Virus record (IMG/VR): IMGVR_UViG_3300037088_000888
Strand: one strand, 5' to 3'
From: an uncultured virus (IMG/VR IMGVR_UViG_3300037088_000888)
Lineage: Duplodnaviria > Heunggongvirae > Uroviricota > Caudoviricetes
Length of the DNA: 20,000 bases
Each line of letters starts with the position of its first letter. Position 1 is the stretch's first letter. The notes below the pieces were generated by a model that searched no databases, was not told the origin of the DNA, and worked only from the letters and a program-made list of their open reading frames with translations. Made by a program: the position numbers and the translations under genes. Below are positions 1,401-20,000 of the stretch, piece by piece.

Positions 1401-2786
1401 TTATATTTTTTCTATTCTTATCCACGATTCGTTCGGTACTGATAGAGCACTTCCACTGTCACCGATTCTAAAAACCATTAATTCTATATAATCATTAGCA
1501 TATAATAATTTTGTATATGTGGGTATTTGACTTGTCCCCTCATTATCAAAGGTATTAATATCTCCAGATGTGGTCGTTAATTGCGCAACATAATTAATTC
1601 CATTTTTTCTTACTGAACTACCAATAAGTTTTATACCCTCTGATTGATTAAGAATAGTTACCGAGTATGATATATTATAATGACCAGTAGTTGTTATGTA
1701 AATACGAGAACCACCAGTAAAACTTATACTTTTTCCGCTATATTCCTGCGTGTCCCAATTAATTGGTGTTGGTATAATGTCATTTACTTCCAAATTTCCG
1801 ACACTATCAACTAATTGAATGAATGAATTTAATGTTGAAGCATTAAATATTAAACTATTTGTTGTGGCAGATATTGACATATTAGAACCAGCCACTAACG
1901 ATTTATTATTTACATTATTATTTATAATACCCACACTTAAAACATATCTATTACCTAAATTAGCAACATTTCTAATATTAGAAGCATATATATTTCCAGC
2001 ATTATATACTGCTCCGTGAGAACTTACTGTTTTAATACTGATTTTTGGTTTTCTTGATGTTTTAACAATTTCGAATTCTTTTTCGTCTTGGATAAAACCT
2101 AATATTTTCAAAGCATACTTGCTGACAAAAAATCTATCACCGTCAATATTTTCAATTGGATTTGCTTCAGCAAAACCTTCAAAAAGTAATGGTAAAGGAT
2201 TACCCTTAATAAAAAGATATTCCTGACGTGAAGCAAAGTTTTTCAAAACTTGTTCATCATATGTGTTAACATCAACTCTATATTTAGTAAACAACGCAAC
2301 TTCGTATATCATATCAACATTGGTGGGTTCTGGCATTTTAAATCTTAAATAAATAACTTCACCATTGTCCAATATTGGCACATCCATATATCTGAATTTA
2401 CGTGGCTGTGGTATACGATATTTTTTACCAAGACGTGTACCTGCCTGCTTGTCGATACGTCTGATTGTAATATATGGCGTGGGAACATTGTGGTCTAAAT
2501 CACTAAATTTCCATGTCTTACTGAATTCACCCCATCTGTCATTATCCATATAAAAAGTAGGGACGTTTCTATTATCAATAACTAATTTCATTCCGGTATC
2601 ATTAACATAATCGAATAGTCCCTGATCTAAATCTTCAAGCAATATGGTTCTTGGAAAATATTTGGTGTTAACATCTGTCAAACGCATCAATTCTTCAATT
2701 CTATCTATACCATACTTAAGATATTCAGTACCAATTTTTGGTGGGTTGATATCAAGGGTTAATTTTACTTTTTTTGGTAGTGACAT
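1401..2786 (-). CDS. gp15-like tail terminator / sheath stabiliser with C-terminal C1q/BclA-like beta domain
   Basis: N-terminal ~250 aa contain PTNVDMIYEVALFTKYRVDVNTYDEQVL, resembling the T4 gp15 family pattern. The C-terminal ~140 aa (RIYITTTGHYNISYSV...LYANDYIELMV...WIRIEKI) fit a C1q/TNF-like jelly-roll pattern. Structural gene context. Confidence 0.55.
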   Translation of the reverse strand: MSLPKKVKLTLDINPPKIGTEYLKYGIDRIEELMRLTDVNTKYFPRTILLEDLDQGLFDYVNDTGMKLVIDNRNVPTFYMDNDRWGEFSKTWKFSDLDHNVPTPYITIRRIDKQAGTRLGKKYRIPQPRKFRYMDVPILDNGEVIYLRFKMPEPTNVDMIYEVALFTKYRVDVNTYDEQVLKNFASRQEYLFIKGNPLPLLFEGFAEANPIENIDGDRFFVSKYALKILGFIQDEKEFEIVKTSRKPKISIKTVSSHGAVYNAGNIYASNIRNVANLGNRYVLSVGIINNNVNNKSLVAGSNMSISATTNSLIFNASTLNSFIQLVDSVGNLEVNDIIPTPINWDTQEYSGKSISFTGGSRIYITTTGHYNISYSVTILNQSEGIKLIGSSVRKNGINYVAQLTTTSGDINTFDNEGTSQIPTYTKLLYANDYIELMVFRIGDSGSALSVPNESWIRIEKI

Positions 2787-2871
2787 GAAAATAATTTATT
2801 ATAAATACTTGTATATTACTTATATTTTTTGTAATATTGCAAGTATTTATGTATAGCAAATAATAGACAAT

Positions 2872-3030
2872 ATGAAAAATTTAAATAAAATCAAAATGCT
2901 TACTGTCAGAATTGATTCTGATTTAAATGAAAAATTTCAAAAGCATTGTAAAAAAAATGGATATGCGATATCAAAAAGAATAAGAATATTAATGGAAAAC
3001 GATATAAATGGAAATAGAAATATTAGTTAA
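2872..3030 (+). CDS. Ribbon-helix-helix DNA-binding protein, 52 aa (not in ORF track)
   Basis: Manual translation MKNLNKIKMLTVRIDSDLNEKFQKHCKKNGYAISKRIRILMENDINGNRNIS*. It shows the LTVRI strand, a helix, G-x-x-x-S-x-x-IR and a second helix (CopG/Arc pattern). Overlaps the next gene by 23 nt. Confidence 0.7.
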   Translation: MKNLNKIKMLTVRIDSDLNEKFQKHCKKNGYAISKRIRILMENDINGNRNIS

Positions 3031-4714
3031 TGAAAAAGGTGATTGTATTAAAGAAATTTACTTAAAAAGGGATAATATTACTTTGCATAAGGAAATTAAT
3101 AAATTTAATTTAATTTTTAATAATAATAATTTTATTTGGAGTCATAAAGTTTATAATTATATAAACAATATCACGGAAATACCTAAATGTTCAATATGTA
3201 AAAAAGATTTAAATTTTTTATCATTTAAATCTGGATATAGAAAATATTGTTCAATTAAATGTGCTGTTAATTCTTCTGAGTTTAAAGCAAATAAAGAAAA
3301 AACGATGATTAAAAATTATGGGGTTAAAAATCCTTCACAATCTAATATAATTAAAGAAAAAAAAGAAAAAACGTTATTAAAAAACTATGGTGTTACGCAT
3401 CCATTAAAATCTGACATAATTAAAGAACGTGTAATTCAAACAAACATTAAACATTGGGGAGTAGAAAACGTATCACAATCAGATATTGTTAGTGAAAGAA
3501 AGAAAAATACATTCTTAAAAAATTATAATGTTGAATATGGTTTTCAGTCAGAAGAAATCAAAGATAAAATAACTACAACAATACAAAATAAATATAATGT
3601 TGATAATTACGTGCAATCCAAAGAAAATAAATTATGTATTAAAAATAGCATGGATATAAAAAGAAAAAATTTCTGGTCAGATTATTTAAAAATTGATGCT
3701 TCAAACATAATTATTAGTGGCAGTACAATTACAATAAAAAATTTATGTAAATTACATGACAGTTTTGAAATTAACAGATATAATCTTTACAACAGAACAA
3801 TTGTGTATTTGCTTGAAAACATATGTACAAAATGTAATCCAATATCTGAACAATCGTCAATTAAAGAAAATGAAGTTCGTAATTTTATTGAAAACGAATT
3901 GGATATTAAAACTGAAAAAATTAGAATAGATAATAAAGAAATTGATATTTATATGCCAGATTATAAATTAGGTATTGAATTTGATGGCTTATATTGGCAC
4001 TCTGATAATCAAAAAGATAGTAAATATCATTTGAACAAAACTGAATTATGCGAAAAAGAAAGAATACAATTATTACATATTTTTGAAGACGAATGGATAT
4101 TTAAAAAAGATATTGTAAAATCAATTATAAGGTCTAAGTTAAATATTATTGAAAATAAAATATTTGCTCGTAAATGTATAATAAGAGAAATTGATAATAA
4201 TCTTACAAAAGAATTTTTAATTAATAATCACATTCAAGGTAGTGTAAATAGTAAAATTAAATTAGGTTTATTTTATAATAACGAGTTGGTTAGTATAATG
4301 ACTTTCGGTAAAAAACGTATTAGTATGGGTAATAAAATCAGAACTGATGGCGAATATGAGATGTTGAGATTTTGTAACAAACTTAATACTCAAGTAATTG
4401 GAGGTGCAAGTAAACTATTAAGTTATTTTATTAAAACATATAATCCAAAGTCAATTTTAACTTTTGCAGATAAACGCTATAGTCAAGGCAAGCTATATAT
4501 AAATTTGGGATTTGAATTTGTCTGTGATACTCAGCCTAATTATTTTTATTTTAAACCAAGCGAAATGATTAGGTATTATCGTTTTAAATTTAGAAAAGAT
4601 GTGTTGGTTAAAGAAGGTTATGATTCATCAAAAACTGAATTTCAAATTATGAATGAACGTGAATATTTAAGAATTTATGACTGCGGTCACATGAAATTTG
4701 AAAAAATTCTTTGA
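3008..4714 (+). CDS. Hef-like / Vsr-like (PD-(D/E)xK superfamily) putative homing endonuclease with YGV repeats
   Basis: CSIC...YCSIKC Zn motif, five 23-aa KNYGVxNxSQS repeats, nuclease motif EIDIY...GIEFDGLYWHS...LLHIFEDEW, and a C-terminal ARKC...NHIQG...RFCNK...GGASKL...TFADKR...IYDCG domain typical of phage Hef-like proteins. Confidence 0.7.
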   Translation: MEIEILVNEKGDCIKEIYLKRDNITLHKEINKFNLIFNNNNFIWSHKVYNYINNITEIPKCSICKKDLNFLSFKSGYRKYCSIKCAVNSSEFKANKEKTMIKNYGVKNPSQSNIIKEKKEKTLLKNYGVTHPLKSDIIKERVIQTNIKHWGVENVSQSDIVSERKKNTFLKNYNVEYGFQSEEIKDKITTTIQNKYNVDNYVQSKENKLCIKNSMDIKRKNFWSDYLKIDASNIIISGSTITIKNLCKLHDSFEINRYNLYNRTIVYLLENICTKCNPISEQSSIKENEVRNFIENELDIKTEKIRIDNKEIDIYMPDYKLGIEFDGLYWHSDNQKDSKYHLNKTELCEKERIQLLHIFEDEWIFKKDIVKSIIRSKLNIIENKIFARKCIIREIDNNLTKEFLINNHIQGSVNSKIKLGLFYNNELVSIMTFGKKRISMGNKIRTDGEYEMLRFCNKLNTQVIGGASKLLSYFIKTYNPKSILTFADKRYSQGKLYINLGFEFVCDTQPNYFYFKPSEMIRYYRFKFRKDVLVKEGYDSSKTEFQIMNEREYLRIYDCGHMKFEKIL

Positions 4715-4740
4715 ACTTAAAAATTAAATGATTACATTTG
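4710..4740 (+). promoter_or_regulatory. Bacteroidota-type primary sigma promoter (-33 TTTG, -7 TACATTTG)
   Basis: TTTG at 4710-4713, 19-nt spacer, TACATTTG at 4733-4740; 18 nt upstream of the ATG at 4759. Confidence 0.65.
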
Positions 4741-4758
4741 CGTAATTAATATAAATTT

Positions 4759-5133
4759 ATGTTAGCAGAGCGTAAAGAAATTCTTAATGAGGATAAAAGT
4801 TTAGGATACATAGAATCAGTATTTGAATCTGATAATGTATTAAAAACTACATATTTCCCTAATAATCAAAGACTTTATATTGCATTTAATCGTGGCGAAA
4901 CTTATTCGTATAGTAATGTCACACCAGAAATGTATAAAGAATTTGAAGAAGCGGAATCTCAGGGCAAATGGTTTTTTAAACGAATCAACAAGAATCCAAG
5001 GCATCCATACCGTAAAGAATTTACTTTATATCCAAATGAAGTAAAAGAACTTAAGGAAATTGTAGAAGCAAAAAAATTATCTCAAATTGAGAAAGATCAG
5101 ATAGATAAAATAATGAAAAACGAAAATGAATAG
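4759..5133 (+). CDS. KTSC domain protein
   Basis: Y...QRLYIAFNRGETYSYSNVTPEMYKEFEEAESQGKWFFKRI matches the KTSC pattern. Confidence 0.75.
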   Translation: MLAERKEILNEDKSLGYIESVFESDNVLKTTYFPNNQRLYIAFNRGETYSYSNVTPEMYKEFEEAESQGKWFFKRINKNPRHPYRKEFTLYPNEVKELKEIVEAKKLSQIEKDQIDKIMKNENE

Positions 5134-5458
5134 TATCGAAGAACTTCAGAATCTTATTGAATTACTTAAACAGGCATTAAATTTTTATGCTAATGGTGAA
5201 AACTATAAAGGTAATAAAAGTGCAAGTAGTTGTTGTAGTGGTATATCAGTATCAAAAGTTGAAATGGACGAAGGTATTCAGGCACGCTTTGCGTTAAAAC
5301 AAGCAGAAGAATTGATTGAAACAAATCGTAAAATGCAAGAAGATTATGATAGACTTATGTCTGCTGCAGATCAACTTCAAGCAACCGGTGATATGGCAGA
5401 CCCACAAGAATTAATTAAAGCATTTAAAATATTAGGAAATGAAGATAAAAATGTTTAA
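5126..5458 (+). CDS. Hypothetical helical protein
   Basis: 110-aa ORF overlapping the upstream gene; predicted coiled-coil character. Confidence 0.7.
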   Translation: MNSIEELQNLIELLKQALNFYANGENYKGNKSASSCCSGISVSKVEMDEGIQARFALKQAEELIETNRKMQEDYDRLMSAADQLQATGDMADPQELIKAFKILGNEDKNV

Positions 5459-5493
5459 TTAATATAATTTTAAATCAATAATAAAAACATACT

Positions 5494-5682
5494 ATGAAAG
5501 GCACAACTGGAAAGAAAATGAGAAGGGAGAATGCCAAGAAAATGCTTGAAGCACAACTCCTTAGAGGTACAAAACCCGAAAAAGTAAATGGTAAAACAAC
5601 CAATAATATGATACCACTGACTACTGGTGATATCACCCGCATCAATCGTGAGATTGAAGAAATAAATAATAAGAAGAAATAA
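5494..5682 (+). CDS. Small basic hypothetical protein
   Basis: 62-aa ORF with an A-rich leader, co-oriented with its neighbours. Confidence 0.6.
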   Translation: MKGTTGKKMRRENAKKMLEAQLLRGTKPEKVNGKTTNNMIPLTTGDITRINREIEEINNKKK

Positions 5683-5869
5683 TACCATTACTGATTGAAT
5701 TTAAAGATGAAATACCAATAATTTTTGATAATATTATAATATAACAATGGGTTGAATGATAGTAACTAAAATATGGTACAATATTATACAAATGTGAACA
5801 TTTAATAACTTATTTTTAATAATTGTATAGCATTTCAACTCATTGGAGTATTTATAATAAAATATTTGA

Positions 5870-6469
5870 ATGATTGGAATTAAAGAAGCAGCAAAATTAC
5901 TTGGAATTACTCCCAAAACATTAAGAATATGGGAGAAGGAAGGTAAAGTTATCAGTCACAGGACTGAAGGGGGACATAGAAGATATAATGTTTCTGAACT
6001 TATTGGTAGTCATGGAGATAAATTATTAACAATTGCATACGCAAGAGTATCAAGCAGTGACCAAAAAGAAGATTTAAAAAGACAAGAAATGGTGTTGGAA
6101 AATTATTGTGCAAACAAAGGATTTGAATTTGAATTGATTTCTGATTTAGGTTCTGGAATGAACTACAAGAAAAAAGGACTTGTCAGATTAATAAAATTAA
6201 TTTGTAGTAATCAAATTGACAGATTAGTAATCACGCATAAAGACAGATTATTGAGATTTGGAAGTGAATTAATATTTATGCTTTGTGAAATATTTGCTGT
6301 TGAGGTTTGTATAATCAATAGAAGTGAAGATAGTACCCTTGAAGAAGACTTAGCCAATGATGTATTGGAAATTATAACTGTCTTCAGTGCAAGATTATAT
6401 GGAAGTAGAAGTCATAAGAATAAACAAATAATACAACAGTTGAAACAAGTAGCCAAAGAATTAAAATGA
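5870..6469 (+). CDS. tnpA: IS607 transposase (MerR-like HTH + serine recombinase)
   Basis: EAAKLLGITPKTLRIWEKEG...RTEGGHRRY; YARVSS catalytic motif; DLGSGMN; HKDRLLRFG; FSARLYGSRS. Confidence 0.95.
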   Translation: MIGIKEAAKLLGITPKTLRIWEKEGKVISHRTEGGHRRYNVSELIGSHGDKLLTIAYARVSSSDQKEDLKRQEMVLENYCANKGFEFELISDLGSGMNYKKKGLVRLIKLICSNQIDRLVITHKDRLLRFGSELIFMLCEIFAVEVCIINRSEDSTLEEDLANDVLEIITVFSARLYGSRSHKNKQIIQQLKQVAKELK

Positions 6470-7641
6470 AATCAATTAAAGTAAGATTGGAACTAAATAA
6501 TAAGCAAATCACACTTGCAAATAAACACGCAGGAGTGACAAGATATGCTTATAATTGGGGAAAATCTGTTTGTGATTTGGCAATACAAAATGGTGAACAC
6601 CGACCATCAGCAATTGATTTGCATAAGAAATTTGTTGCAGAAGAAAAAAGCGTTAAACCTTATTTATATGAAGTTTCTAAATGGTCTTCTCAACAAGGTT
6701 TGAGAAATCTGGATGAAGCATATAAAAGAATATTTAAAGTTAAAGGTAGTCGTTTTCCTAAGTTCAAAAAGAAAGGACAATATGATAGTTTTTACTTGGA
6801 AGGTGATATCAAAACAAATAACAATAAAATTAAAGTGCCTAAGTTTGGTTGGTTGAGATGCTCAGAAATATTACCAGAATGTCAGATTAAAAATGTGGTT
6901 ATTAGTAAAACGGCTAATCAATGGTTCATTGCTTTTAAAATACCTTTTGAACCAGAAATAATTAATAAAACAAATGGTATTGTCGGTATTGATTTAGGTA
7001 TTAAAACATTAGCAACATTATCAGATAGTAAAATATTTGAAGCAGTTAAACCATATAAAAAGAACAAGAGAAAATTAAAAATATTACAAAGAAAATTAAG
7101 TAAGAAACAGAAAGGTAGCCAAAACAGAAAAAAAGCAGTATTGAAAGTTGCAAAATTGCATTATAAAATTAGTTGTATTCGTAAAGATACCACACATAAA
7201 TTGACAACATATTTAAGTAAAAACCACACTGAATGTGTAATTGAAGACCTTTGTGTTCGTGGTATGAGTAAAAATCACAAACTTGCATCAGCCATATTGG
7301 ATGGTGGATTTTCAGAGTTCAGAAGACAATTGGAATATAAATGCCAATGGTATGGTAGTATTTTGACCATTGTTGATAGATTCTATCCGAGCAGTAAGAC
7401 ATGTTCAAATTGTGGTAATATTAAAAAAGAACTGAAACTATCTGAGAGAACTTATGTTTGTGAGAATTGCGGTCTGGTAATTGACAGAGATTTAAATGCT
7501 GCAATTAATTTAAGAAATAAGTCGGCAAGTTATGCCGAATCAGCCTGTGGAGTGCCTAAACAATTAAACTCTTTTGAGTTTAATGGTGCAATGAATCAGG
7601 AAGTAAACAGCAATGTTCAACATTGTGTAAGTTTTATATAA
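6466..7641 (+). CDS. tnpB: RNA-guided endonuclease TnpB
   Basis: RuvC I GIDLG, RuvC II VIEDL, Zn finger CSNC...CENC, RuvC III DRDLNAAINL. Confidence 0.95.
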   Translation: MKSIKVRLELNNKQITLANKHAGVTRYAYNWGKSVCDLAIQNGEHRPSAIDLHKKFVAEEKSVKPYLYEVSKWSSQQGLRNLDEAYKRIFKVKGSRFPKFKKKGQYDSFYLEGDIKTNNNKIKVPKFGWLRCSEILPECQIKNVVISKTANQWFIAFKIPFEPEIINKTNGIVGIDLGIKTLATLSDSKIFEAVKPYKKNKRKLKILQRKLSKKQKGSQNRKKAVLKVAKLHYKISCIRKDTTHKLTTYLSKNHTECVIEDLCVRGMSKNHKLASAILDGGFSEFRRQLEYKCQWYGSILTIVDRFYPSSKTCSNCGNIKKELKLSERTYVCENCGLVIDRDLNAAINLRNKSASYAESACGVPKQLNSFEFNGAMNQEVNSNVQHCVSFI

Positions 7642-10200: not shown

Positions 10201-11241
10201 ATGGATAATCAAAATTTAAACTGTTGTGGAGTTTATAAAATAACTAACAGTATTAATAATAAATTTTATATTGGTTCATCATATAATATTAAAGCAAGAA
10301 TTAGAAAGCATTTTGAATTATTAAAAAGAAAATCACATCATAGTATTCATTTTCAAAATGCATATAATAAATATGGCAAAGAGGTATTCACTACATGTGT
10401 ATTAGAAACCTGCGAAAAAGATGATATATTATCTCTCGAACAAAAATATCTAGATAATATAATTGATTGGCAACACGTATACAATATGTCTAAAATTGCA
10501 AGTGGTTGTAATTATGATTTATCAACACATTCAAATCGAAACGAAATTATAGAAAAAATGAGTATTGCAAATATGGGCAAACATACTAAACCGTTTTATA
10601 TTGATAATGTGCGATACGAGACACTTCAGAATGCAGCAGAAGTTTATAGTATTGACATTAAAGCAATATCAAGTAAATTAAAAAATTGGAAAAATAAAAA
10701 TTATTATTATGAAAATAATCCTAAGATTGGTGAATATAATGTAGATATACACAAATCCTATTTTTACAGACCAATAAAGAATAAAATATTGTATTATTGT
10801 GATTGTGGTACTGAGATAACTAAAGATTCTAAATATTGTAAAGAATGTCGTAAACTCAGAAAAGATAAGAGAAAATATATCAATCCTGTTATAATTAATG
10901 GAGTAAAATATGATTCAGCAAAAATAGCTTCAAAAATTGTTGGAATTGAATATGCTACTTTAATATATAGAATCAATGCAAATACATTAATATTTAAGGA
11001 TTATTATTATGCCAATAAACCAAAAGATATTACCAAACTGGTAACAATTGAACAGATAAATAAAAAAATATCAATTAGTAATACTGGTAATAAAGGACCT
11101 GCTAATAAAAAACCCTTTACAATAAATAACGAGCATTTTGAAACATTAGGAAATGCATCAATAAAACTTAACATAAGAAAAAACAGAATCTGGTCGAGAT
11201 TAAATAATCCAAATTTTATTGAATATAAATATGTTAATTAA
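10201..11241 (+). CDS. Free-standing GIY-YIG homing endonuclease (Seg-like)
   Basis: GVYKITN...FYIGSS...RIRKH...LEQKYLD...YN. C-terminal repeated DNA-binding modules (PFYIDNVRYETL, PVIINGVKYDSA, PFTINNEHFETL) and a CDC...CKEC Zn motif. Confidence 0.85.
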   Translation: MDNQNLNCCGVYKITNSINNKFYIGSSYNIKARIRKHFELLKRKSHHSIHFQNAYNKYGKEVFTTCVLETCEKDDILSLEQKYLDNIIDWQHVYNMSKIASGCNYDLSTHSNRNEIIEKMSIANMGKHTKPFYIDNVRYETLQNAAEVYSIDIKAISSKLKNWKNKNYYYENNPKIGEYNVDIHKSYFYRPIKNKILYYCDCGTEITKDSKYCKECRKLRKDKRKYINPVIINGVKYDSAKIASKIVGIEYATLIYRINANTLIFKDYYYANKPKDITKLVTIEQINKKISISNTGNKGPANKKPFTINNEHFETLGNASIKLNIRKNRIWSRLNNPNFIEYKYVN

Positions 11242-11796: not shown

Positions 11797-12915
11797 TTAA
11801 ATTGATATAATTGGGAAAGTTGGTGGTTGATATCCACGTTCTCTATTAACATTTTCAGCAATATCAGCACGAATTTTTGTTAAACTCTCCTGTGTTATAT
11901 ATGATAATTGTTCTAACAATTCTTTTTTAGTATCTTCTAATAATTTTGTACCTTCATCAAGCAAATGACGATAATCCATTGTTAATTGTTTATCTGTTAC
12001 ACCAAGTTCACCAGTATAAAACCCCCTCACTCCACCAATAACAATTTTTACCTGTGCAATAAGAAAATTTCTTATTTGCTGACGTGCAACATCATTCATT
12101 TTAGTCCAGTCCAATACTTTTGTTGGAGCATCTGAAGGCAATTTAACAATATCACTATTTTCTTCCAAACATTTATCCCTACCCCCCTGATTTGTATCAT
12201 AATACCAATACCAAACTTTTCTTCCAGCATAGTGATTACCCCATACTCCACTGATTTCATGACGACTACCCGGGATTGGGTACAAATGCAACACCTTTTC
12301 TCCACTTGCCAGACCTGTAATACGATATGTTAAAATTGACTGCATAACTCTTTGTTTCATTCTTCTGTCTTGTGCAGAAAGTAATGTTGAAAAAGTTGGT
12401 TGGACGTACATGGAGGGACGACCGAGGTATGACCATCCGACCATACCCGGTGACCAAGCATTCAGAGCAAACGGGTCTACCAGACCACCATCAATTTCTG
12501 CAGGTGTTTCCCACAACACTTCATTAACTTCTCTGCCTTTAGGTATGATATAATGTTGTGTATTTGCCAGTGTTATGATGAAATCACGTTTAAGTTCCCA
12601 ACCAGTAGCTGCAGGTGCATTAGTACCTAAACCTACTTGTCTTGAATAAGCATATGTGAATGATTCCATATAAGTATTTGGTTTTGTTGTGAAAGCACTA
12701 ACAAAATCACTATATTCCAAACTTAAACCTTCTAATCCAATCCATTGCTGTTGAATTAACCAACTATTTACTATTGATGAATAATCTTCAATAGCCATTT
12801 CAAAATATGAGTCCATCATTTCATCTTTGATTTCAAAGGGTCTCATTGGATATCCCAGCACATGTTTAACATGTGTGTATAATTTATTTTTATCAACTGT
12901 TGCAATTAACGCCAT
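11797..12915 (-). CDS. gp13-like neck (head-tail adaptor) protein
   Basis: N-terminal KHVLGYPMRPFEIKDEMMDSYFEMAIEDY resembles the T4 gp13 LG.P.I..E....Q.... pattern. C-terminal LTMDYRHLLDEG...KKEL also fits, as does the size. Confidence 0.65.
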   Translation of the reverse strand: MALIATVDKNKLYTHVKHVLGYPMRPFEIKDEMMDSYFEMAIEDYSSIVNSWLIQQQWIGLEGLSLEYSDFVSAFTTKPNTYMESFTYAYSRQVGLGTNAPAATGWELKRDFIITLANTQHYIIPKGREVNEVLWETPAEIDGGLVDPFALNAWSPGMVGWSYLGRPSMYVQPTFSTLLSAQDRRMKQRVMQSILTYRITGLASGEKVLHLYPIPGSRHEISGVWGNHYAGRKVWYWYYDTNQGGRDKCLEENSDIVKLPSDAPTKVLDWTKMNDVARQQIRNFLIAQVKIVIGGVRGFYTGELGVTDKQLTMDYRHLLDEGTKLLEDTKKELLEQLSYITQESLTKIRADIAENVNRERGYQPPTFPIISI

Positions 12916-13929: not shown

Positions 13930-14103
13930 ATGAAAAAATTTAAAATTGCATTTTTTGAGGGTGATAAAATCATTTATTCTAAGAAATTTGATTTAGATGC
14001 TCAAGGCATTAAATCTGCTGCTATAGAAATGAAATTATGGGAAAAGGGCAATGAATATGATAAATTTACATACACATCAATTGTATTAGAAGATGAATCA
14101 TAA
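13930..14103 (+). CDS. Hypothetical protein, 57 aa (not in ORF track)
   Basis: Manual translation MKKFKIAFFEGDKIIYSKKFDLDAQGIKSAAIEMKLWEKGNEYDKFTYTSIVLEDES* fills the gap exactly and overlaps the helicase start. Confidence 0.65.
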   Translation: MKKFKIAFFEGDKIIYSKKFDLDAQGIKSAAIEMKLWEKGNEYDKFTYTSIVLEDES

Positions 14104-15580
14104 ACCAACTGCTGAACAAGAAAGAATTTTCTTATTTACCAAAAAACGTCAGGAAAATATTTTAGTTAAAGCACGTGCAGGAACTGGCAAAACATATACA
14201 GCAATTGAATGTGCTAAATTATTGCCACAAGATAAAAACATTATGTTCTTGGCGTTTAATAAACATATTCAGGAAGAACTTAAAACTAAACTACCAGAAC
14301 ATATACGCTGCTACACAACTTATGGCATTGGTACTGGGGCAATTAAAAGAAAATATGGTGATAGCATTCAATTCGATGAATTCAAAGCAGATAAAATTAT
14401 TCAAAAGAAAGCAAAATCATGGGGGTTAGATGATGAATTTAATGATGAAGAAGAAATAAACTTTTATCTTAATTCAATAAAAAAACTTGCTAACTTATGT
14501 CGTTTAACATTAACCACAAAACCAGAATTTATACCTTATATTGCTGACAGATATGAGATTACAAATTTGAGAAAACCACAAGACATAAAAAGAGTGCTCA
14601 AAGTGCTTGATGAAATGAGCACTGATAGAAAAACATATGATTTTACAGATATGATTTATCTACCTGCGATTGATAATGGTATTTGGTTTTTTCCACAAGA
14701 TTATGTGTTAGTTGATGAATTTCAAGATTTAAATCGTTGTCAGATAAAAATTGTTGAAAAAGTTTTAAAAAAAGATAGAATAAGTAAAAAAATCACAGGC
14801 AGATTATTTGCTTTCGGGGACGAATTCCAAGGTATTTATGCCTTCAACGCAGCAGATGATAAAGTAATACAATGGTTCGAAAAATTTCAAAATACAAAAA
14901 CGTTACCCTTAACAATTTCTTTCAGATGCTCTCAAAATGTGATAAAAGAGGCACAGAAGATAGTACCAGATATCAAAGCACTCCCAGATGCCCCAGATGG
15001 TATCGTAAGAGATGGTAGCGTGCTCGCAGAAGCACAAAGTGGTGACTTTGTTCTTTGCAGGACAACAATGCCTCTGGTGAAGCTATTCTTTGAATTTCTG
15101 ACACAGAAGAAAAAGGCAATCATTAAAGGCAGTGATATTGGAGTACATTTAATTGAACTAATCGGCAAAATCAATACAATAGAAAAATTAGTTACTTTCT
15201 GGGAAAAAGAACTGGCTAAATTCAAAAAAGATTTAAAGGCAGATGGTATATTAAATCCTTATGAACATAGTGGTTATTCTGCACTTGAAGATAAAGTTAT
15301 GACGTTATTATTTTTAGCCAGACTTACTGATAGTATTGAAGGATTAAAAACCAGTATAAAAACAATATTTACTGATGAAATTCAGGGTATTGTACTCAGT
15401 ACAGTACATAAAATTAAAGGTTTAGAAGCAAAGAGAGTATTTATAATACGTCCTGATTTATTACCAATGAAGAACGTAAAAGGTTGGCAATGGATTCAAG
15501 AACAAAATTTACATTATGTTGCGATTACGAGAAGTTGTTTAGAACTTATTTATGACAGAACATGGACAGACGAAGAATAG
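14093..15580 (+). CDS. UvrD/Rep-like superfamily 1 helicase
   Basis: Walker A ARAGTGKT, LAFNK, Walker B LVDEFQD, GDEFQGIY, SFRC, STVHKIKGLE, YVAITR. Confidence 0.9.
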   Translation: MNHKPTAEQERIFLFTKKRQENILVKARAGTGKTYTAIECAKLLPQDKNIMFLAFNKHIQEELKTKLPEHIRCYTTYGIGTGAIKRKYGDSIQFDEFKADKIIQKKAKSWGLDDEFNDEEEINFYLNSIKKLANLCRLTLTTKPEFIPYIADRYEITNLRKPQDIKRVLKVLDEMSTDRKTYDFTDMIYLPAIDNGIWFFPQDYVLVDEFQDLNRCQIKIVEKVLKKDRISKKITGRLFAFGDEFQGIYAFNAADDKVIQWFEKFQNTKTLPLTISFRCSQNVIKEAQKIVPDIKALPDAPDGIVRDGSVLAEAQSGDFVLCRTTMPLVKLFFEFLTQKKKAIIKGSDIGVHLIELIGKINTIEKLVTFWEKELAKFKKDLKADGILNPYEHSGYSALEDKVMTLLFLARLTDSIEGLKTSIKTIFTDEIQGIVLSTVHKIKGLEAKRVFIIRPDLLPMKNVKGWQWIQEQNLHYVAITRSCLELIYDRTWTDEE

Positions 15581-15653
15581 ATATTGAAGAAGAACGCAAC
15601 ATAACAAATGACCATCGTTCAAAAAAAGAAAAAAATAAAAGAAAAGTATTAAA

Positions 15654-15893
15654 ATGGCTAAAGAAAAAACAATCGAACAACTTGAAAAAGAGTTAGAAGA
15701 CTTAAAAACATCCCATAGAAGTCAGTGGGACACTTACGGTAGCGAACTTTGTGCTGGTGATATGATCAGACAAGAAGAAGAACTTGAAAAAAAGATAGCA
15801 AATCTAAAAGCTACAAATATTGGTTTAAAACAACTTCGTGAAATAAAAGAAGAAACTAAAAAGCGTTGGGAAAAATTAGGACTATTAAAATGA
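15654..15893 (+). CDS. 79-aa coiled-coil protein with a C-terminal copy of the major capsid protein N-terminal segment
   Basis: Residues 55-78 NIGLKQLREIKEETKKRWEKLGLL versus MCP residues 12-35 NIGLKQLREQREITTNRWEKIGLL. ATGA overlap with the next gene. Confidence 0.75.
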   Translation: MAKEKTIEQLEKELEDLKTSHRSQWDTYGSELCAGDMIRQEEELEKKIANLKATNIGLKQLREIKEETKKRWEKLGLLK

Positions 15894-16240
15894 AAGTAAT
15901 TATAGCTGGCAGTAGAGATTTTGATGATTACGAATTGCTTCGTAAATATTGCGATTTTTATTTACAAAATCAAACAGAAATTGAAATCGTTAGCGGGACA
16001 GCAAAAGGTGCTGACCAGTTAGGTGAAAGATATGCAAAAGAAAAAGGATATCCAGTAAAACAATTTCCTGCTGACTGGAGTAAAGGAAAATCAGCAGGTT
16101 ATATCAGAAATGAAGAAATGGCAAAATATGGTGATGCATTAATTGCTTTTTGGAACGGAATGAGTAAAGGGACCGAACATATGATTAATTTGGCAAAACA
16201 ATATAATTTAAAAATAAGAATTTGTAATTATACAATTTAA
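15890..16240 (+). CDS. SLOG-superfamily protein (DUF2493 / YspA-like); start revised to 15890
   Basis: MKVIIAGSRDF...IVSGTAKGADQLGE.YA...FPADW..GKSAGYIRNEEMA...LIAFWNG.SKGTEHMI. Confidence 0.85.
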   Translation: MKVIIAGSRDFDDYELLRKYCDFYLQNQTEIEIVSGTAKGADQLGERYAKEKGYPVKQFPADWSKGKSAGYIRNEEMAKYGDALIAFWNGMSKGTEHMINLAKQYNLKIRICNYTI

Positions 16241-17493: not shown

Positions 17494-19173
17494 TTACTGT
17501 AAGTCACCAATTCCGAAAGTCTGAAGACCATCGCAGAAGATTCTACCATAGTATCTGTTCAATACCATTTTCTTTGCATATCTTGTCATGATACCACGAA
17601 TCGGTGTGAAATCAAAAGGATTATACATGACAGGCGTAAGTTGCATTGGTACGTAAGGAGCGTAAATATAGCCGGTCTCTAAGATACTTGTTCCTTTATG
17701 TCCAACTAACACTGTGTTAGCAGGAGCATATGGGTCACGATATACCTGATATCTGCCACTAAGAGTACCGATTTTTTCAATACCCATATTGTATTTATCC
17801 TGCTCTGGAGCAGCATTAGATACATGGAAGTATTCAAGGTCATCGAATACTGCACTCACTTCAGGAGATACTACAACCCAAGAAGCACCACCACGAAGGG
17901 TTGCTTTATGAATCTGTGCTGAAATCTGGTTGATCTTTGTGATCAATGTCTGATTCCAGTCTTTCTGTACACCATAATAAGTGTTAGTTCCTTTACGAAG
18001 TCCGTTGTAGTCCCAACGAGCTGTCCAAGCTGCACCACGTCTTAAATCACGAAGGATTTCACGGTCAATTTCAGCAGCCATTTGTTCTGACAATAAAGCT
18101 GTTAATTCAGCTTCTGCGTCAATGTTATGGAATGCACTAACGTCCTGTGCCAATTCAGGTGTCCACATAGCACGCATTTTACGTGTTTCTACAGATACTG
18201 TTACTTGGTCAAGAACGAAGGTTACTTCAGCCATTCTTGAATCTTCTTCAAGATCGCTGTATACTCTGTAAGTAAAGTAGAATGTTATACCAGTTGCAAC
18301 TGTAGTTGCACTAAGTGGTAGATAACCACCAGTTCCAGCGTATTGTATGTCAGCTAAAAGTACAATTGTACCTGTTTTGCCAACAATTGCTTGACCGTAT
18401 TTTTGAACCTTTACGTTGAAAGGAATTGCTGTACCTGCAGAAATACTACCATCTGTAGCATAAGGAGAAGGAGCAACAAAATTAGTTTTTGAAGTGATTC
18501 TCAAACCAGCAAGGAATGATTCGGTATCCATTGGCACGCCAGCAGGACCGATCAATTTACCTTCACTTGTAGTAGTGAAACCACTAAGTGTGAGTGTAAC
18601 GAATTTATCAGTACCAACTACCCAAGTAGAAGCAGCAGTTTTACCGGTTATAATTGTCATTTCACCTTTTGAACGATCAAACAATGATGTACCTTCTTCA
18701 TTATATTTAGTTGCATAGAATGCATCGTACAATGAACGACTTTCGAACTGTGTTTTTGCACTAAGTGCTTTTTCAGCAGAGTTTCCATATGCACCATCAG
18801 GTGATGTTTGATTGAAATTAGGAGCATTATCTACTCTTACGCTTGCTTTCGGATTGATGTAGTACAATTTACCAATCGGTAAGTTAAGTGCCTGTACAGA
18901 CACGATGTCATTTGCTAACAATTTAGCAAATACTCTACGAATTACGGGGAATGCAACGGTTTCGAATTGTCCACTTGAAGACGAATCTGACGATTCATTG
19001 ATCATGTGTGATAACTGGTTTTCGAAAAGCTGTGCGCAATTCTCTTTCACGTTACCTTCAAGACCTTCAAGAAGACCGATTTTTTCCCAACGATTTGTTG
19101 TTATTTCTCTTTGTTCACGGAGTTGTTTTAAACCAATGTTACCAACTTCCGCACTTTCCATTAAAAATCCCAT
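17494..19173 (-). CDS. gp23: Major capsid protein, T4 gp23 family
   Basis: LFENQ, IRRVF..L.ANDIVSVQ, ELAQDV.AFH.IDAEAELT.LLSEQ.AAEIDREI, GY.YAPYVP, F.P..G.MTRYA motifs. Confidence 0.95.
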   Translation of the reverse strand: MGFLMESAEVGNIGLKQLREQREITTNRWEKIGLLEGLEGNVKENCAQLFENQLSHMINESSDSSSSGQFETVAFPVIRRVFAKLLANDIVSVQALNLPIGKLYYINPKASVRVDNAPNFNQTSPDGAYGNSAEKALSAKTQFESRSLYDAFYATKYNEEGTSLFDRSKGEMTIITGKTAASTWVVGTDKFVTLTLSGFTTTSEGKLIGPAGVPMDTESFLAGLRITSKTNFVAPSPYATDGSISAGTAIPFNVKVQKYGQAIVGKTGTIVLLADIQYAGTGGYLPLSATTVATGITFYFTYRVYSDLEEDSRMAEVTFVLDQVTVSVETRKMRAMWTPELAQDVSAFHNIDAEAELTALLSEQMAAEIDREILRDLRRGAAWTARWDYNGLRKGTNTYYGVQKDWNQTLITKINQISAQIHKATLRGGASWVVVSPEVSAVFDDLEYFHVSNAAPEQDKYNMGIEKIGTLSGRYQVYRDPYAPANTVLVGHKGTSILETGYIYAPYVPMQLTPVMYNPFDFTPIRGIMTRYAKKMVLNRYYGRIFCDGLQTFGIGDLQ

Positions 19174-19191: not shown

Positions 19192-20000
19192 TTATGATAT
19201 TATTTTTTTGCCTCTGTGTTCTATGGTTTCGATAATTTTCCTCATTCTCTGAATATGTTTATCGTCTGCATAAGCTGTTTTTTCGATTACTTCATCAAGT
19301 TTTTGTTTTGAAGACGGCTGTATAGAAGCTGATACTTTAGTCTCAATACTTTCAGTAAGTGTTTTCTTTCCACCTTTCATTTCTGTAAGGAAATTCTTAT
19401 ACACTTTCTGTGATGAAATGATATTATCAACTTTTTTAAATTCGTTGATAATTTTAACTTTATCCTCTTGTGTTAATGCCAATTCTTCGTTTACCAATAA
19501 ATTATTTACATGAGATAAATTGGTATTGAAAACTGCCATTTCTTTTAACTGTCCACGATATTTGTCCAGTGCGGATTTGTATTTTTCTACTAAAACCGTA
19601 GCGGTTTCTTTATATTTCTTAGTTTCGTTTATTTTTTTGGTCAACTTTTTGTTTTCCTCAATTAAACCACTAATCTTTTTCTCTGATTCTGTTCTAAGAC
19701 CACTACGCATTTTTTCAGCAGCAGCCGTAGATTTATATTCTTTGCCCGGTATTGATGTTGAAGGAACTTTTTTCATATTTCCTAAAGTCTGTGTTAAACT
19801 TTCTTCAACAGGTGCTTCATTTGCACCACCCAATACTGCATCAATGTCGGCTTCTGATATTTCCATATTTCCGCCTAATTCATCAATAAGTTTTGAATCA
19901 TATTGACCCTGATGCATTTTATCTAATGGGAAATTACCAGCATGCATTTCATCGACTGATTTTTCATCAATCATTGCTGTGGTCGGTCCGCCAGCATTTA
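19192..20000 (-). CDS. Putative prohead core / scaffold protein (5' end outside the window)
   Basis: Directly upstream of the MCP gene; acidic region plus coiled coil with several (L/I/V)xE sites. The frame stays open upstream of 19974 (..NAGGPTTAM) to the window edge. Confidence 0.6.
   Translation of the reverse strand, partial: NAGGPTTAMIDEKSVDEMHAGNFPLDKMHQGQYDSKLIDELGGNMEISEADIDAVLGGANEAPVEESLTQTLGNMKKVPSTSIPGKEYKSTAAAEKMRSGLRTESEKKISGLIEENKKLTKKINETKKYKETATVLVEKYKSALDKYRGQLKEMAVFNTNLSHVNNLLVNEELALTQEDKVKIINEFKKVDNIISSQKVYKNFLTEMKGGKKTLTESIETKVSASIQPSSKQKLDEVIEKTAYADDKHIQRMRKIIETIEHRGKKIIS

Follow-up and report, generated by a model that had tools for sequence, protein, structure and literature searches.

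Capsid propeptide modules on small proteins of uncultured phages: a candidate docking peptide for the prohead

Introduction

Why does a phage carry a piece of its own major capsid protein (MCP) at the end of an unrelated small protein? The question is raised by a small open reading frame (ORF) of an uncultured member of the Caudoviricetes (IMG/VR record IMGVR_UViG_3300037088_000888). The window analysed here is a stretch of 20,000 nucleotides (30% G+C) that forms the last 20 kb of the 50.9-kb viral record. An initial annotation, made from the letters of the window, noticed the MCP-like segment and proposed three functions for it: a decoy against a capsid-sensing defence, an inhibitor or timer of assembly, or a tag that loads cargo into the prohead.

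In the excerpts of the literature used here, the T4 capsid protein gp23 has a 65-residue propeptide that is removed by gp21 at Leu/Ile-x-Glu (PMC9958956, PMC9026906), and T4 internal proteins reach the scaffolding core via short targeting peptides that are cut at Leu/Ile-x-Glu (PMC9026906, PMC3012670, PMC5694885). The same excerpts describe the internal proteins of T-even phages as diverse, with only the targeting sequence conserved (PMC3012670), and report that Alt loses both its N-terminal and its C-terminal propeptide to gp21 (PMC5694885). The localisation of proteins to the T4-type scaffolding core "remains mysterious", in the words of an excerpt from a recent T4 review (PMC9958956). A different use of a copied assembly element is described in an excerpt on SaPI1, whose CpmB protein carries a C-terminal copy of the scaffold helix-and-hook and competes for the capsid protein of phage 80alpha (PMC5644958).

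Results

The small protein ends in a copy of the first propeptide helix

The small ORF (15654..15893, + strand) encodes 79 residues and consists of an N-terminal domain and a C-terminal MCP-like segment. An AF2 model built on a 25-row alignment (mean pLDDT 84.2) predicts two helices, at residues 7-31 and 34-74. The N-terminal helical domain (residues 1-54; 15654..15815, +) contains a Tyr-Gly-Ser-Glu-Leu-Cys motif, is itself a conserved handle across its homologue family, and is unrelated to the MCP. The protein has 54 homologues at E <= 0.01 (best 2e-39) and matches no Pfam or PHROG family.

The MCP-like segment comprises residues 55-78 (15816..15887, +). It aligns without gaps to MCP residues 12-35 (19140-19069, - strand), with 18 identical residues out of 24 and 56 identical bases out of 72; 12 of the identical residues use the same codon and 6 a synonymous one. 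These values, recounted here, agree with those first reported. The similarity is significant: within the 50.9-kb record, the small protein has a single match besides its own gene, namely the MCP N-terminus (E 7e-7), and the segment matches positions 2-23 of 51 in a profile of the module (alignment A3) at E 9e-8.

The window copy is a short form, made up of the first helix and the Gly-Leu-Leu of the turn. It ends after Gly-Leu-Leu-Lys, in the middle of the turn and one residue ahead of a stop codon that overlaps the start of the next gene. The second helix (Asn..Ala..Leu-Phe/Tyr-Glu) is absent and, owing to the truncation, so is the equivalent of the [Ile/Leu]-x-Glu cleavage site. The full helix-turn-helix unit is present in three relatives (P0007, P0020 and P0041). 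Two further database sequences, one of them 92% identical, share the same 77-residue ending, and their differences from the window protein are confined to the N-domain.

The similarity is old and the locus is real

We compared the codons of the 18 identical residues with the expectation from the codon usage of 16 window ORFs. Twelve shared codons were observed and 10.4 were expected (P(>=12) = 0.29). Shared codons are thus no more frequent than codon usage predicts, indicating an old similarity at the protein level, and the base identity is accounted for by amino-acid identity plus codon bias, which argues against a recent copy. Synonymous sites are saturated, yet 18 of 24 residues are kept. 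An RNA-level or regulatory cause of the similarity is ruled out, because synonymous sites are unconstrained. Judged by its sequence, the segment is a true copy of propeptide helix 1 that selection has retained.

Contigs from two DNA runs of different studies, one run being possibly the source sample, span 15762-15931 with zero differences, and this excludes an assembly chimera. Two contigs from one RNA library match 15773-15832 and 15834-15931, again with zero differences. The second crosses the junction of the ORF with the downstream SLOG gene and is consistent with co-transcription; DNA carry-over into an RNA library is possible. RNA-library contigs leave 15540-15647 without coverage. A scan for promoters and terminators returned 31 sites where 25 are expected. 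For dN/dS, the three locus sets with a module protein in common carry no information, since their DNA does not differ, and the closest DNA orthologue of the truncated form in a metagenome scan is 66-67% identical. The ESM Atlas and a sequence search of the PDB with the module profile gave nothing usable.

Several claims of the initial annotation are borne out by these results, namely that the N-terminal domain is unrelated to the MCP, that the segment reflects constraint on the protein and not a fresh duplication, and that the ORF is coupled to the SLOG gene through an ATGA overlap (below). The assembly chimera that it had named as grounds for refutation is dismissed by the exact DNA contigs.

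The copied element belongs to a T4-type capsid protein

Downstream of the small ORF lies a SLOG gene of the YspA/cpYpsA-related type (15890..16240, +; Pfam YAcAr 3.7e-19). The stop codon of the small ORF overlaps its ATG in the sequence ATGA at 15890-15893. SLOG domains are associated, as a class, with conflict systems that use nucleotide signals. Upstream, in the same non-structural block of the plus strand, lies a gene for a UvrD-like helicase (14093..15580, +; Pfam UvrD-helicase 1.8e-17; phrog_1967), a neighbour that is also present in the related locus L022.

The MCP itself (17494..19173, -) is a 559-residue member of the gp23 family (Pfam Gp23 3e-74; phrog_138). Its propeptide module (residues 12-60; 18994..19140, -), supported by AF2 secondary structure, conservation and the T4 gp23 pattern, is predicted to consist of a helix at 12-32, a Gly-Leu-Leu-Glu-Gly-Leu-Glu-Gly turn and a helix at 41-61 with an Ile-Asn-Glu end. 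The AF2 model has a pLDDT of 58 overall and 64-74 in the propeptide stretch, too poor to place propeptide docking. The MCP has 183 relatives in IMG/VR, many of them on contigs of 300-365 kb. The propeptide is the most conserved part of the protein: among 20 relatives, residues 12-35, the part matched by the small ORF (19069-19140), are 98.3% conserved, whereas the mature part reaches 82%.

Immediately upstream of the MCP gene, cut by the end of the record, lie the C-terminal 260 residues of a scaffold-like protein (19192..19974, -). It has no Pfam family; full-length counterparts of 442-681 residues stand at the same place in 64 related loci. Its position, composition and the T4 gene order suggest a scaffold role. 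The window holds only the MCP and this C-terminal part, and L022 holds a T4-type head-morphogenesis gene set: a portal (Portal_T4 2e-58), a protease (Peptidase_S77 1e-18), a 548-residue scaffold-like ORF and an MCP, encoded together. Given the portal of T4 type, the Peptidase_S77 prohead protease and the scaffold of relatives, we can fairly infer gp21-like maturation at [Ile/Leu]-x-Glu.

Other genes of these loci deserve mention. Between the portal and protease genes of L022 lies a gene (2306-7393, -) whose 1695-residue product ends in a lysozyme domain of glycoside hydrolase family 25. The window contains an IS607-type pair inside the phage (5870-7641, +), in which a MerR-HTH serine recombinase (Resolvase 3e-19) precedes a TnpB/OrfB_IS605 protein whose TNB domain is Cas12f-like. 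Two proteins of the window resemble homing endonucleases: one of 568 residues (3008-4714, +) with matches to DUF7487, Mom-like and REase_MTES_1575 (phrog_3339, 2e-131), the other a GIY-YIG protein (10201-11241, +) whose tail resembles the DNA-binding part of I-TevI.

Free propeptide modules form a large family

Around related MCPs, the module is carried by seven different non-MCP proteins, the window protein included, and one of them has two copies. The aligned similarity covers the whole propeptide, from helix 1 through the Trp-x3-Gly-Leu-Leu-Glu/Asp-Gly-Leu turn and helix 2 to an Ile/Leu-x-Glu end, which aligns with the presumed MCP maturation site. In some of these proteins it extends into the N-arm of the MCP.

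We searched 1.84 billion cluster representatives with the module profile and recovered 503 protein clusters at E <= 1e-3, of which 65 reach E <= 1e-10. Among the best 150 of the 503, 102 are clearly non-MCP, 29 are MCPs or MCP fragments, and 19 are ambiguous; the latter have an MCP-like beginning and could represent either disrupted MCP genes or complete propeptides that occur free. The 102 clear non-MCP proteins among these best 150 are small, with a median length of 85.5 residues. The module takes an N-terminal, internal or C-terminal position on unrelated partners, which include the window-type N-domain, a recurrent C-terminal domain and, as assigned by Pfam, a Zn ribbon, an ASCH domain and a GIY-YIG nuclease. 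Other proteins, of 53-70 residues, consist of the module alone.

The 121 non-MCP representatives keep the same positions as the MCPs do (Trp in 100%, Gly in 98%, Leu in 98%, Gly-Leu in 98-99%, Ala in 82%, Phe/Tyr in 88%, Glu in 84% and, at the equivalent of the cleavage site, Ile/Leu in 89% and Glu in 69%), values that are inflated by the choice of the sequences with the profile itself. The module is without a family in Pfam or PHROGs. A literature search of limited coverage found no published description of MCP-propeptide copies on other proteins. Together, the module proteins form a large family that lies outside Pfam and PHROG coverage and for which we found no published description.

The initial annotation had regarded the segment as a special mimic of this phage's own MCP. 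That view gives way here: the window protein is a truncated member of a family with hundreds of propeptide copies, and the search for non-MCP bearers that it had called for yielded the 102 clear cases among the best 150 of the 503 clusters.

The module proteins are accessory. Among 11 genomes of the clade that are at least 90% complete, four have one extra copy, one has a marginal match and six have none. In a second MCP clade, which has Gly-Phe-Leu in place of Gly-Leu-Leu, the module was found solely in the MCP, both in four large records and in 80 loci of +/-10 kb. A tblastn search of a phage collection, with the first 62 residues of the MCP and with the module protein P0060, matched MCP genes only, at one place per record; one of these matches is annotated merely as "hypothetical protein". 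The free-module protein P0185 had zero tblastn matches in the same collection.

Several subtypes were observed. One sub-family of 116-193 residues copies the MCP N-terminus through the N-arm (the Phe-Pro-Ile-Ile-Arg-Arg region) and adds a conserved C-terminal domain. It is found in L078 (8571-9092, -), L089 (1282-1629, -) and L090 (1486-1905, +) and in P0058, P0062, P0066 and P0189; some of its members have two tandem modules, and its genes lie about 148 kb from the MCP gene in G002 and about 35 kb in G001. Another subtype of free copies (alignment A4) has Gly-Phe-Leu in the turn and Cys-Cys at the position of Asn-Gln in the MCP, and several of its members are MCP-like from residue 1. It comprises P0113, P0122, P0126, P0164, P0169-P0173, P0179, P0185 and P0204. 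A DNA pattern scan of IMG/VR located the Cys-Cys subtype on a single 11-kb fragment that has no MCP, and a search for it as free modules returned MCPs only among the 80 loci listed in that search. Subtype-specific residues appear to be common to MCPs and free copies at the level of the clade, unpaired by genome, a pattern that is suggestive. A search for longer fused forms was swamped by MCPs. In P0059 and in L064 (9950-10522, +), MCP frames are normal for about 85-100 residues and then run into unrelated sequence; an intron, a mobile-element insertion or a frameshift could be the cause.

The N-domain is constant and its tail is exchanged

We collected 86 distinct members of the Tyr-Gly-Ser-Glu-Leu-Cys N-domain family, to which the window protein belongs. 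The N-domain occurs alone (often about 58 residues), at the C-terminal end of longer proteins, or before ASCH-like and other tails. The MCP-like module is present on 22 of the 86 and absent from 64. The proposed refutation that orthologues lack the segment or let it decay thus holds in one half and fails in the other: the 64 members carry other tails or none, and where the module is present its key positions are conserved and show no decay. Short forms that keep only the Trp...Gly-Leu-Leu core, with different sequence after it, recur in several members, so the truncation of the window copy need not mean lost function.

The tail of the window protein is polymorphic within the community. In a co-occurring strain, a cassette of 95 bases (15792..15886, +) gives way to 113 unrelated bases, and the tail they code for is another one. 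Two DNA runs, X1 and X2, and one RNA-library run, X20, contain the joint of this alternative allele (15791>15887). Locus L289 has the alternative allele too, with flanks that are 91.3% and 92.2% identical and a tail at 47%, which is chance level. The alternative tail was considered as a mimic of another structural protein, and this was rejected since its five-residue match to a 373-residue ORF (11797-12915) fails to extend. The intergenic stretch between the helicase gene and the small ORF (15528-15664) is also polymorphic, with 135 bases replaced by 51 in the co-occurring strain.

Gene fusions link the N-domain to other domains. In L310, SLOG and an N-domain protein are again neighbours, with their order inverted and within a single open frame. 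Fusions of the N-domain with an ASCH-like domain recur, in L310 (129-1016, +), in L293, L300 and L301, and in L077 (12082-12585, -). The frame of L310 thus holds a SLOG domain, the N-domain and an ASCH-like part; the ASCH assignment is confirmed by Pfam only for P0125. The fusions hint that SLOG, N-domain and ASCH work together. Recurrent tails of another kind were also seen. An acidic tail, Glu-Asp-Pro-Ser-Gln-Ile-Val/Ile-Asp-Asp/Asn, stands at the extreme C-terminus of many small proteins with or without the module (P0018, P0021, P0022, P0028, P0031, P0042, P0084, P0108, P0172 and others), and a second recurrent tail reads Pro-Ser-Asp-Pro-Pro...Thr-Ile-Glu-Pro-Ile. Both may be further docking peptides.

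Discussion

Our results suggest that the small ORF is part of a modular group of accessory proteins encoded by huge, uncultured phages of T4-like type, with a constant N-domain and an exchangeable tail, and that its present tail is a short form of a widespread module descended from a gp23-type capsid propeptide. We tentatively favour the reading that the module is a portable docking peptide which uses the partner of the MCP propeptide in the prohead core; we hold this to be plausible, though at somewhat less than even chances, and binding, packaging and cleavage are deduced from the pattern of the family. The partner inside the assembling prohead would most likely be the scaffolding core, and alternatively, perhaps, the prohead protease or the MCP propeptides themselves. 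Through docking the small protein would enter the head, perhaps along with the SLOG protein translated with it, and there a gp21-like protease would trim full-length modules at the [Ile/Leu]-x-Glu site.

Of the three functions that were proposed at the outset, a cargo or prohead tag appears to be the best fit to the family pattern, because the same module stands on varied domains and is accessory and patchy, like the internal proteins of T4. Its occurrence at any position on unrelated partners is the pattern of an address tag, and the conserved propeptide with a core motif common to T4 gp23 argues for a conserved partner. The loss of both terminal propeptides of Alt to gp21 gives a precedent for C-terminal tags.

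Several observations weigh against docking. The window copy is without helix 2 and the equivalent of the cleavage site, and so might fold or dock differently from the complete unit. In many family members there is nothing but the module, hence no cargo, and the 64 of 86 N-domain proteins without it indicate that the N-domain can do without a module. The gene is next to that of a helicase, within a non-structural block and on the strand opposite to the head genes. If the docking site is that of the MCP, the tag would compete with the MCP. No non-MCP copy is present in any cultured phage of the collection. T4 has no second propeptide copy, and its targeting sequences are unrelated, making the analogy a functional one only.

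Known systems resemble the module in part. Encapsulin cargo-loading peptides are short terminal peptides that dock cargo inside an HK97-fold shell; unlike the module, they do not derive from the shell protein, to which they bind directly, and there is no sequence relation. The T4 gp23 propeptide is homologous to the module and shows the same Trp...Leu-Leu-Glu-Gly...Phe-Glu-Asn-Gln pattern, including the Trp...(Gly)-Leu-Leu-Glu-Gly turn, and fuller relatives keep helix 2 and the [Ile/Leu]-x-Glu end. In contrast, the window copy is C-terminal on a 79-residue non-capsid protein, is truncated after helix 1, and is encoded in a non-structural block on the opposite strand. In T4, the gp23 propeptide matches only itself; the A3 profile misses even T4 gp23 and is therefore uninformative on T4. 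The module resembles the peptides of T4 IPI-III and Alt, as described in the excerpts cited in the Introduction, in being one element on many diverse, dispensable and patchily distributed partners. In the same excerpts, the T4 proteins are dispensable and change fast, and the T4 targeting sequences have about 10-19 residues, are N-terminal and are unrelated to gp23, whereas the module has about 50 residues (24 in the window), is MCP-derived and stands at either end or internally. The window segment is thus no N-terminal targeting peptide of the IPIII type, being C-terminal and MCP-related, an assignment made by position and kinship.

The likeness to CpmB leads to the alternatives. As an excerpt on CpmB describes it, that protein too is small and helical: its N-terminal domain serves oligomerisation, and its C-terminal peptide reproduces the element by which a capsid-assembly protein docks, with the same interactions; unlike the window protein, it copies the scaffold C-terminus, has the capsid protein as its binding partner and comes from a satellite that parasitises the phage (PMC5644958). 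The window protein is not a competing scaffold of this kind, as its copied element is the MCP propeptide and its gene is on the same phage record as the MCP. It is possible, though on the whole we doubt it, that the propeptide serves as a free, exchangeable mimic of nascent capsid protein, displayed by hundreds of small phage proteins, which captures the scaffold, the maturation protease, a chaperonin or a host sensor; its tails would be swapped in an ongoing conflict, among co-infecting huge phages or between the phage and a capsid-sensing defence, and the window protein would be a weapon or a shield and not cargo. A further reading, which we consider unlikely, is that the module acts as a soluble competitor or modulator, occupying the partner of the nascent MCP propeptide (scaffold, protease or chaperone) without being cargo. 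Assembly or maturation would be slowed or adjusted in this way, or else co-infecting relatives would be impaired in building their heads, effects to which we give an equally low chance; the mode of action would be that of CpmB. The small helical N-domain with a C-terminal mimic peptide, as in the CpmB excerpt (PMC5644958), speaks for such a role, as do the many members that are the module without cargo, and cassette swapping between strains and patchy distribution fit a conflict gene. The near-invariance of the MCP propeptide in the clade cuts both ways: a mimic would act on all relatives, but the phage's own assembly would be hit equally, and no difference between self and non-self is visible. 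The gene is also carried by the phage itself and not by a satellite, and the fused ASCH and GIY-YIG enzymes go unexplained by pure competition.

The conflict could instead be with the host, in that the protein soaks up a host factor which recognises the MCP propeptide, be it a capsid-sensing defence, a protease or a chaperonin. We judge this very unlikely, and give as little credit to the timing that it implies, namely that the protein is made before or alongside the MCP. The adjoining SLOG gene, the fast turnover of the cassette and the extreme conservation of the propeptide, which makes it a good sensor target, would suit such a shield. However, the known capsid sensors CapRel and Lit recognise epitopes of the mature region, and we know of no capsid sensor for the propeptide. 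A faithful mimic would moreover be expected to trigger, not block, a sensor that is activated by binding; the protein matches no defence or anti-defence family in Pfam or PHROGs, and a literature search for capsid mimics or decoys found nothing relevant. We think it quite unlikely, too, that the 24-residue piece of the window is a leftover of tail shuffling and that the protein works through its N-domain, together with SLOG, a reading under which the full module of the family may still be functional. The copy does stop in mid-turn, one residue before the stop codon, its tail is replaced wholesale in the co-occurring strain, and most N-domain proteins have other tails or none. Against this, 18 of 24 residues are kept while synonymous sites are saturated, two further sequences end alike and differ in the N-domain, and the retention of only the Trp...Gly-Leu-Leu core by other members suggests a functional minimal motif.

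Whichever partner the module has, the family singles out about 50 residues of the MCP with a Trp...Gly-Leu-Leu-Glu/Asp-Gly-Leu core that is also found in T4 gp23, and the repeated cutting and pasting of this stretch onto other proteins marks it as a self-sufficient interaction unit. It offers a concrete peptide for testing core docking in T4. If the module is indeed a targeting tag, huge phages would have a second, MCP-derived route for loading the head, and the fused partners (the SLOG-linked N-domain, ASCH and GIY-YIG) would be candidate injected effectors. If it is a competitor or a decoy, it would represent a new class of self-mimicry in phage conflicts. Under either reading, several hundred unannotated protein clusters gain a common description.
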